A program made the position numbers and the translations under genes. This document shows positions 17,676 to 18,826 of a stretch of 64,000 nucleotides of DNA, piece after piece. Numbering within the stretch: position 1 is the stretch's first letter; the number at the start of each line of letters is the position of its first letter. Under the pieces are notes generated by a model. The model saw only the letters and a program-made list of their open reading frames with translations. It made no database searches and was not told the DNA's origin. Source of the stretch: Escherichia phage PinkRuby; sequence record PP925839.1. One strand, given 5' to 3'.

Positions 17676-17840
17676 TTACTCTTCTTTTTCTTTAGATTCC
17701 TCTTTTTTCTTTTTAGGAATCTGTTCAGGACCTTTATTTACTACAGCACCTGACGTTGTTCCAGTAGAGATATTTTCAGGATTACCACCTGAATCTCCAG
17801 CTACCATATCTTCTTTAATAAATTCTTTATATGTTTTCAT
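17676..17840 (-). CDS. small ORF with capsid-targeting-sequence-like N-terminus
   Basis: hand-translated 54 aa: MKTYKEFIKEDMVAGDSGGNPENISTGTTSGAVVNKGPEQIPKKKKEESKEKEE; stop 3 nt from gene 61 start. Confidence 0.5.
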   Translation of the reverse strand: MKTYKEFIKEDMVAGDSGGNPENISTGTTSGAVVNKGPEQIPKKKKEESKEKEE

Positions 17841-17886
17841 ATTAACCTTTATTCATAAAAGCATTAAAAATTTGGTCATCAATAGA
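17838..17886. repeat. 49-bp direct repeat, copy A (gene-junction module)
   Basis: catattaacctttattcataaaagcattaaaaatttggtcatcaataga; identical copy at 18196-18244. Confidence 0.8.
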
Positions 17887-18198
17887 TGGAATAGCAACCT
17901 TTTCGGCATCATTTAGCAAATCATTAATTTCATCAGATAGCATAACACATGTGCCTTTATTTCCTGTAATTGTTACTGCACAATTACGAACGTTTTCTTT
18001 ATCAAATTTTAGGTTAATATTTTCGTAGTGAAAATCCTTTAATGCTGAATATATCTTTAAAATGAAATTGTCTTTTACTACAATAAACCCAACCTCACTA
18101 TTAAAACGTGGTTCATGGAAACTGTAATAAACCTTTTCATCTATAAAATCGTATGAAATTTTTTCCATTTTTAAATATGAAAATTCAGAACTATACAT
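17842..18198 (-). CDS. hypothetical protein (61.1 position)
   Basis: 118 aa; C-terminal 14 aa identical to ORF 18200..18826. Confidence 0.55.
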   Translation of the reverse strand: MYSSEFSYLKMEKISYDFIDEKVYYSFHEPRFNSEVGFIVVKDNFILKIYSALKDFHYENINLKFDKENVRNCAVTITGNKGTCVMLSDEINDLLNDAEKVAIPSIDDQIFNAFMNKG

Positions 18199-18244
18199 AT
18201 TAACCTTTATTCATAAAAGCATTAAAAATTTGGTCATCAATAGA
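18196..18244. repeat. 49-bp direct repeat, copy B
   Basis: identical to 17838-17886. Confidence 0.8.
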
Positions 18245-18826
18245 AACATTTACTTTAGACTGTTTTTCTGATGGTAATTCATATCCACATATCACAATTT
18301 TGTGATCAATATCAAAATACACAGAAGCAATATGATTAATGATGTTTTCAGTAAAGTCTAAATCAACATCAATATCTTTTTGACCACAGCCCAAAGGATA
18401 AATAATGCGAGTAATTCGATTATCTTTAACAAATATTCCACCGACATACTCTGTACTGCGTTTAAAGTCTACACGCCGACGAAATGAAAAATATTCAGGC
18501 TCTTTATGAGCTCGGCTCATAGGACACAACGAGTAACTAGAATAAGAGATGTCAAATCCTACGCCTTCGATATGAGCCAAAGTGTCATGATTAAACCAAT
18601 TATAATCGTACGCCAAATCCATTAGATTATAATATGTAAAAGGCACCGGATTAACATCATTAGTCACAAGCATGTAATTAGCAACTGCTATAATTTCATT
18701 GTTTTTAACGAATACAAACCGTGATTGATGCGAATGACCTGGACCCGCGTTTTCACGATTAATGATATAACACTGGGCACCTTTATATTTGTATGTATCT
18801 TTGCACTTGTGCATTTGATAAAGCAT
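18200..18826 (-). CDS. hypothetical protein at 61.2 position (T4 TifA / ToxN-inhibitor locus; identity unverified)
   Basis: 208 aa; internal segments resemble the 61.1-position protein. Confidence 0.5.
   Translation of the reverse strand: MLYQMHKCKDTYKYKGAQCYIINRENAGPGHSHQSRFVFVKNNEIIAVANYMLVTNDVNPVPFTYYNLMDLAYDYNWFNHDTLAHIEGVGFDISYSSYSLCPMSRAHKEPEYFSFRRRVDFKRSTEYVGGIFVKDNRITRIIYPLGCGQKDIDVDLDFTENIINHIASVYFDIDHKIVICGYELPSEKQSKVNVSIDDQIFNAFMNKG

Follow-up and report, generated by a model that had tools for sequence, protein, structure and literature searches.

Two consecutive gene junctions in the genome of Escherichia phage PinkRuby (record PP925839.1) carry an exact 49-bp direct repeat, which is located within the 64,000-nt stretch of this genome that was analysed in the present work (hereafter, the window). 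One copy closes a gene of 118 codons (the short gene) and the other closes adfA (T4 gene 61.2), the two genes being adjacent and both followed by a tightly coupled start codon. According to our analysis, it is probable that the repeat represents the 3' end shared by two tandem members of the AdfA superfamily, that it is homogenised by gene conversion and that it serves as a recombination joint.

The 49-mer (CATATTAACCTTTATTCATAAAAGCATTAAAAATTTGGTCATCAATAGA) has two exact sites, copies A and B, whose plus-strand coordinates are reported in Table 1. A scan of the window allowing up to three mismatches did not retrieve any third site, and the search in 100 dinucleotide-preserving shuffles gave 0 matches, none being expected by chance; hence the repeat is confirmed at both of the positions given by an earlier note made from the sequence alone. 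All the genes of the repeat region are on the minus strand. In the coding sense, each copy reads TCT ATT GAT GAC CAA ATT TTT AAT GCT TTT ATG AAT AAA GGT TAA T ATG, i.e., the final 14 codons of one gene (SIDDQIFNAFMNKG; hereafter, the tail), the stop codon TAA, a 1-nt spacer, and the ATG of the following gene, and the codons, stop, and start described in the earlier note can be read directly from both copies. A Shine-Dalgarno (SD)-like AAGG sits within the final two codons of copy A. An assembly artefact, which would have undermined the whole observation, was ruled out, since the same two-copy layout recurs in many independently sequenced genomes (RB32, Ge15, Kha5h, AUBRB02, Sf21, and JK38) as well as in metagenome contigs.

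The probability that 14 identical codons would occur by chance, given identical residues and the codon usage of the genome, is 3.2e-4. The use of the same codon at conserved residues was then compared between the tail and the rest of the gene (Fisher test). The paralogs of the window share 13 out of 13 codons in the tail vs. 48% elsewhere (p 8e-4), those of Sf21 share 11 out of 12 vs. 48% (p 0.01), and those of VR20 share 11 out of 12 vs. 64% (p 0.08). No tail excess was observed when orthologs were compared between genomes (p 0.14-0.95); in this case the same codon is used at 6 out of 10 to 12 out of 13 residues, and synonymous changes accumulate at the rate of the rest of the gene. Moreover, copy B of VR20 harbors two A-type synonymous bases that are missing from the B copies of three other Gapriverviruses, and a private GAT codon is common to both copies of Sf21. 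Since paralogous tails are alike within a genome and orthologous tails show no excess, this pattern is, as far as codon usage can tell, the signature of concerted evolution, that is, of tails homogenised within each genome by gene conversion.

The earlier note had attributed the pair of genes to duplication and divergence. In the simplest version of this idea, a recent and partial tandem duplication of adfA would have been followed by fast divergence, and the tails would still be alike only because purifying selection acts on the peptide. The repeat does stop precisely at the ATG, as a duplication extending from the middle of adfA to the start codon of 61.1 would give; moreover, the similarity between the two proteins is colinear, with the tail placed at an equal distance from a common VKDN motif (the motifs VKDNFILKIY and VKDNRITRIIY, pointed out in the note, are indeed present in the two proteins and aligned). 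However, the short family is old, the Gaprivervirus ortholog being 45% identical and other relatives 33-36%; the synonymous divergence (dS) of the paralogs beyond the tail is saturated, as their low same-codon use at conserved residues (48%) indicates; and selection on the peptide leaves synonymous sites free to change, as they do in the orthologous tails but not in the window pair. A recent duplication is therefore unlikely, and is already disfavoured by the codon test. What stands of the original claim is that the two proteins are related beyond the tail, albeit weakly; what does not stand is its simple version, which leaves the exact tail unexplained, the short gene being old and the tail apparently under concerted evolution. 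The identity of the tails would thus be due to ongoing concerted evolution rather than to recent duplication.

In all the other two-copy Tequatrovirus loci that were retrieved (9/9, including that of Ge15, the nearest relative) the copies differ at one to three sites, with copy A ending in NRG (AGA) and copy B in NKG (AAA) or in another variant. The copy A of the window together with its 61.1 flank was found exactly in 3 out of 480 phage records. Escherichia phage Ge15, which shares 99.8% identity with the window over the 1.6-kb segment 17600-19200, differs from it at 32 positions in the region 16546-17626 (gene 61 and upstream) and at a single one in the region 17627-19695 (2069 bp). This sole difference is base 17849, in the Lys/Arg codon, and it turns copy A into the copy-B state; the same K/R polymorphism switches the SD-like GAGG (Arg) to AAGG (Lys). 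A short B-to-A conversion tract would be the better explanation for this change. The density of single-nucleotide differences relative to Ge15 also places a mosaic boundary near 17626, where the primase gene has its 5' end.

The exactness of the window repeat might instead be due to a coincidental AGA-to-AAA mutation at 17849, perhaps favoured because of its Lys residue or of a weaker SD; this would imply no conversion and, for the repeat, the same role in recombination as that of any 48-bp homology. Just one base, a transition, separates the window from the common state, and a K-type copy A also occurs in Salmonella phage Manna, without a copy B that could act as the donor. Against such a coincidence, the only Ge15 difference in 2069 bp yields exactly the base of copy B, shared synonymous patches are found independently in VR20 and Sf21, and a crossover has been mapped within the repeat (see below). 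Hence, we regard a chance mutation as very unlikely, and conversion between the tails remains the explanation that we prefer.

The possible role of the repeat as a recombination joint can be appreciated from natural mosaics. Two metagenome contigs (L026 and L027) and phage JK38 harbor an RB32-type short gene joined to an Sf21-type adfA. Site by site, L026 corresponds to RB32 until the base before copy B and to Sf21 from a site inside copy B onward; therefore, the crossover lies within the 49 bp, and the alignments place the crossover of all three mosaics inside copy B. Furthermore, the identity between Sf21 and the window falls from 98.8% in 61/61.1 to 80% in the short gene, rises to 98% in copy B, and drops again to 76% in adfA; on the basis of this profile, the tails appear as homology islands bounding two hypervariable cassettes. 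Lastly, the alignment of T4 with the window revealed a single gap of exactly 358 bp, i.e., one repeat period, which is the product expected of an unequal exchange between the copies. The parent switch of the three mosaics and the one-period indel of T4 bear out the idea, put forward in the earlier note, that the repeat is a site of homologous exchange.

Other rearrangements were observed at the same locus. SH7, HY03, ime09, and Manna have a short-only haplotype, in which adfA was removed by a 615-bp deletion (window positions 18210-18824 are missing); in this haplotype (SH7, L009 2300-2330) the final 13 nt of copy B (AGAGGTTAGTATG) are kept as the ribosome-binding site (RBS) of the short gene, right after sp. 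In phage vB_Eco_CP (OZ034683.1; L042, 2531-2638), a 59-bp tandem duplication, consisting of the 49-bp tail plus 10 nt, is found between 61.1 and the short gene and results in three Lys-type tail copies and a mini-ORF (open reading frame) of six codons; it could be either a real repeat-driven event or an assembly error. An apparent duplication of the short gene in Yersinia phage phiD1 (HE956711.1; L001, 2810-3010) was discarded, the block being full of N or ambiguous bases and probably misassembled.

The distribution of the tail was surveyed by comparing loci from annotated phages, IMG/VR, and metagenomes. Probing IMG/VR with the exact 49-mer did not retrieve any match, and a degenerate core pattern led to 16 viral and 11 metagenome loci for the survey. 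As marginal counts, 707 records have the tail (890 tail places), 298 the short gene, and 486 adfA. The consensus [IV]DDQIFNAFM[NK][RK][GD]-stop-N-ATG closes three different architectures in four T-even genera: AdfA itself (206-216 aa; Tequatrovirus and Mosigvirus), the short form (116-125 aa; Tequatrovirus and Gaprivervirus), and a third one of 145-146 aa (Dhakavirus and Gaprivervirus). No block of the superfamily is better conserved than the tail, which is invariant even in relatives that share only 25-39% overall identity and which is modelled by AlphaFold2 (AF2) as a low-confidence terminal helix. Which gene opens at the joint depends on the lineage (61.1, the short gene, a TifA-like one, or one of 65 aa), and the stop codon varies as well (TAA, TGA, or TAG); whatever follows, the spacer stays 1 nt long and an SD-like A/GAGG is kept within the two final codons. 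A sliding-clamp-binding motif in the tail (QIFNAF) was also considered and dropped, its spacing not fitting the consensus.

In Dhaka- and Gapriverviruses, a TifA-like paralog is coupled to the tail joint (IME08 orf30, L010 2282-2515; VR20 gp033, L012 2282-2503); therefore, genes of the AdfA and TifA families are directly chained in these phages. Both of these paralogs carry the motif ARPTKRQIR, as does the TifA of the window (19180-19437).

The 49 bp might instead be conserved as a nucleic-acid element (an RNA structure, a site for a nuclease or a regulator, or a strict translational-coupling signal), in which case the copies would be identical through selection on the nucleotides themselves. 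The SD-like A/GAGG, the stop codon, and the 1-nt spacer preceding the ATG are found in every family member, and the change from GAGG to AAGG that accompanies the K/R substitution may tune the translation of the downstream gene. However, no Rfam match was obtained at E<=1, no stable fold was found (z-scores of -0.27 and +1.88), and no promoter or terminator lies within the repeat. Moreover, between genera, the synonymous sites and the stop codon vary at the rate of the rest of the gene, and only the last ~10 nt resemble a signal, SH7-type phages retaining just the 13 nt mentioned above. According to these data, we consider it improbable that a nucleic-acid element accounts for the repeat.

As far as the two genes are concerned, they belong to the gene 61 - 61.1 - 61.2 - sp - 61.4 - dmd - 41 block of Tequatrovirus. 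The 208-aa ORF closed by copy B matches the Pfam family PF23813 ('Anti-DarT factor A') over the entire profile (positions 1-211 out of 211; E 1.7e-136; 452.8 bits, the curated cut-off being 27 bits), shares 96.6% identity with T4 gp61.2, and lies between sp and 61.1 in the dmd-61 operon, with the same gene order as T4 (NC_000866). On these grounds it belongs to the AdfA family, and the neutralisation of DarT1 by the window protein can be predicted. AdfA, the subject of LeRoux et al. (2022; cited in PMC9391042 and in PMC11825919) and of Johannesman et al. (2025; PMC11825919), neutralises DarT1 by binding (PMC11825919), and the R164H change enables the AdfA of RB69 to do so (PMC11825919). When the Mosigvirus motif NINRIAS (where R is residue 164 counted from Met5) is aligned with IINHIAS, this specificity residue corresponds to His165 of the window AdfA.

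The earlier note had considered the 61.2 position as the locus of TifA, the ToxN inhibitor. This attribution is wrong by two genes: in T4, 61.2 is adfA, which codes for the inhibitor of the ADP-ribosyltransferase toxin DarT, and tifA is 61.4 (PMC9391042; PMC11825919), ~350 bp further upstream in the operon. In the window, the ORF at 19180-19437 matches DUF7279 (E 2.8e-20, Pfam), and the Pfam search did not retrieve any DUF7279 match in either of the two repeat-bearing ORFs. The ToxN assay that had been proposed would therefore be directed at the wrong toxin, and the correction spares such experiments. The anti-toxin setting itself holds, in that the operon is the proposed anti-toxin-antitoxin ('anti-TA') island; the toxin/inhibitor pair that was named (ToxN/TifA) does not.

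The 118-aa ORF is absent from T4 (NC_000866) and is found in 298 phage records, as counted above; it was annotated in RB32 as 'similar to gp61.2' and has its own PHROG (phrog_4122), whose cross-matches within PHROGs agree with a relation to AdfA. Its ratio of nonsynonymous to synonymous substitutions (dN/dS 0.07-0.31) is similar to that of adfA; it is a real gene under purifying selection. The protein matches PF23813 with 34 bits (E 2.4e-8) at profile positions 113-211 alone, much of this score coming from the tail. Accordingly, the BLASTP E-value of the short protein vs. AdfA is 2e-8 with the tail and 0.014 once the tail is removed, the latter similarity being weak yet colinear; the tail-less comparison by hhalign gave E 1.4e-4 (52% probability) for the C-half of AdfA and E 3.7e-4 (36%) for the N-half. 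Outside the tail the two proteins are ~31% identical, and Cys73 of the short protein aligns with the specificity position of AdfA, which is occupied by His or Arg (His165 in the window).

The AF2 model of the short protein (pLDDT, the per-residue model confidence, 84) consists of helices and a sheet of five strands, with the tail forming a flexible helix at the C-terminus. Searching with it through Foldseek retrieved a 212-aa protein (31% identity, E 1.7e-4), which is probably an AdfA, its label being unconfirmed, and a 145-aa T-even protein (E 9e-4); the order of strands and helices matches between the short protein and AdfA, as judged from predicted secondary structure alone. No solved structure resembling either the short-protein or the AdfA model was found, which agrees with the statement that AdfA is without structural homologs (PMC11825919). 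Since the short protein has one domain in 118 aa, and the two-domain architecture of AdfA (~208 aa) was not found in it, it represents a related single-domain AdfA subfamily (phrog_4122) rather than an AdfA ortholog. In the AF2 model of AdfA, a unit of four strands plus a helix occurs twice, and the motif FVFVKNNEII (residues 37-46) echoes IFVKDNRITRI (131-141); from the model and the sequence, AdfA looks like an internal tandem of two short-type domains. This, in turn, would imply that the duplication could have been either a truncation or a fusion.

On the whole, we can depict the following possible scenario. The 49 bp would pack together the most conserved peptide of the family (the C-terminal helix) and the translational-coupling joint that starts the next gene, a short paralog having been inserted between adfA and 61.1. 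The peptide of the tail would be under purifying selection, which would keep the copies similar enough for the highly active homologous recombination of the phage; T4-type recombination acts even on 6-10-bp microhomologies in the same operon (PMC9391042). Gene conversion would then homogenise the tails and, in the window, would have removed the one difference that was left, in the Lys/Arg codon (base 17849). Crossovers in the tails would reassort short-gene and adfA alleles between co-infecting phages, and unequal exchange between the copies would delete or add one 358-bp cassette, giving rise to the T4 state or to the window state, respectively; the former presumably arose by deletion. The cassette might persist, despite being flanked by direct repeats, because the short gene is useful: its product may neutralise a toxin (a DarT variant) by direct binding, as AdfA does with DarT1.

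Several points weigh against this scenario. The tie of the short protein, or of the tail, to DarT or to any other toxin is one that we infer, and T4 AdfA is dispensable for resistance to DarTG1 (PMC11825919). Beyond the tail, the homology of the short protein to AdfA appears weak and about equal for either half of AdfA. The test for concerted evolution relies on just 10-13 codons per comparison, VR20 reaching only p 0.08. The change at 17849, being one transition, could have come from ordinary mutation; the chance of a random substitution giving that very change (roughly 1/2069 x 1/3, about 1.6e-4) holds if mutation is uniform and if neither the Lys/Arg residue nor the strength of the SD is under selection. 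Lastly, the polarity of the T4/window indel may be that of a deletion or of an insertion, and the short-only state derives from a separate 615-bp deletion and not from an exchange between the repeats.

A broader reading, which we propose only tentatively and judge to be rather doubtful, is that the tail together with the stop-N-ATG constitutes a portable adaptor, by means of which AdfA-type domains are swapped, stacked, fused, or dropped through homologous recombination in the tail, each architecture neutralising a different variant of DarT or of another toxin and the tail helix docking a shared partner. If this were true, the adaptor would represent an integrase-free mechanism for diversifying the counter-defence repertoire, and it would automatically supply translation initiation for the next gene.

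Table 1. Features of the repeat region and of the neighbouring genes in the window (plus-strand coordinates)
Feature	Position	Strand	Remarks
Repeat copy A	17838..17886	-	End of the 118-aa AdfA-like gene; TAA at 17842-17844; spacer at 17841; ATG of 61.1 at 17838-17840
Repeat copy B	18196..18244	-	End of adfA; TAA at 18200-18202; spacer; ATG of the 118-aa gene at 18196-18198
358-bp unit (a single repeat copy with the unique sequence of the short gene)	17838..18195		Absent precisely from T4
Gene 61.1, 54 aa	17676..17840	-	Translationally coupled to the short-gene tail
118-aa single-domain AdfA-family paralog (RB32ORF033c-like, phrog_4122)	17842..18198	-	
adfA (T4 gene 61.2), 208 aa	18200..18826	-	Full-length Pfam PF23813 match
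sp (spackle)	18826..19119	-	Upstream operon neighbour; its stop overlaps the adfA ATG
tifA (T4 gene 61.4), 85 aa, DUF7279	19180..19437	-	Outside the repeat
dmd (61.5), RnlA antitoxin	19439..19621	-	Completes the 'anti-TA island' (PMC9391042)

Some further observations concern the genes listed in Table 1. At the dmd/tifA junction (19435-19441) the stop and the ATG are separated by 1 nt, just as in the AdfA tail joints, a layout that suggests a tight translational coupling along the whole operon. The counterpart of gp61.1 in Mosigvirus is the C-terminal third of a protein of 155 aa (L011 1819-2286; phrog_2086; common DMVAGDSGG...GAVVNKGPEQIP); the T4-type 61.1 may be what is left of a larger gene, or a minimal form of it. 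Moreover, the survey of the phage database with the region 18245-18823 as query revealed two N-terminal allele classes of adfA, MLYQMHKCKD... (206-208 aa) and MIYYMHKNPPFKYGKFP... (210-216 aa), which align as DNA over just the 3' 416 nt of the query (the unique part of the gene, 579 nt), corresponding to the C-terminal ~139 codons; this alignment hints at a further recombination boundary within adfA.

To our knowledge, AdfA is among the few phage proteins known to neutralise toxin-antitoxin defence. Neither whether adfA is present nor its allele type explains DarTG sensitivity, and further anti-DarTG factors are required in T-even phages (PMC11825919); the short paralog, found in about 300 sequenced phages, and the 145-aa architecture are obvious candidates for this role. 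The C-terminal helix, as the hallmark of the family, would be worth mutating. The paralog, the shared tail, and its nucleotide identity are not mentioned in PMC9391042, PMC11825919, or PMC10853763, and the literature searched did not contain single-domain or 145-aa AdfA candidates, the tail as a hallmark, or conversion and crossover in the tail; LeRoux et al. (2022) might mention them.

Compared with the known systems, the 118-aa gene resembles AdfA in that it scores above the Pfam cut-off, has an identical tail, and shows a matching predicted order of strands and helices; it differs from AdfA in having one domain, just ~31% identity beyond the tail, and Cys73 in place of His/Arg. The concerted evolution of tandem paralogs by gene conversion is a textbook process, and the tails conform to it in that segments resemble each other more between paralogs of one genome than between orthologs of different genomes, with the signal confined to a short tract. 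What is different here is that the tract is of only ~45 bp and lies at a gene junction; therefore, conversion would co-transfer the RBS of the downstream gene.

The repeat can also be compared with the PeSLs of T4-like genomes, which are intergenic regulatory units where an early promoter of the sigma-70 type is combined with a terminator hairpin (2010, PMC2839356; Comeau et al. 2014, PMC4122927). Like them, the repeat is a short conserved sequence found beside accessory genes where T4-like genomes vary, and it provides a joint at which homologous recombination can insert, delete, or replace these genes; recombination breakpoints fall inside the conserved flanking sequence of the tail repeat, too; the analogy is purely functional. 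Unlike PeSLs, the tail joint is coding and includes a stop/start, and it goes with a single protein family, PeSLs being spread over the genome. The identification of the repeat as a PeSL was in fact rejected, no promoter or terminator hit lying in either copy, no stable fold being found, and the sequence being coding.

The closest parallel by position is the T4 dmd-tifA locus, where segmental amplification and deletion via de novo 6-10-bp microhomologies, with amplification of dmd-tifA, occurred in the laboratory (Srikant et al. 2022, PMC9391042). The operon (the 'anti-TA island') is the same, and in both cases direct repeats would drive copy-number changes of counter-defence genes; here, however, a standing repeat of 48-49 bp flanks an adfA paralog in natural genomes. 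The locus thus offers a natural example of reshuffling of the 'anti-TA island' via a 49-bp coding joint, with conversion and crossover, and the repeat is interesting yet built of known ingredients, a tidy example rather than a surprise.

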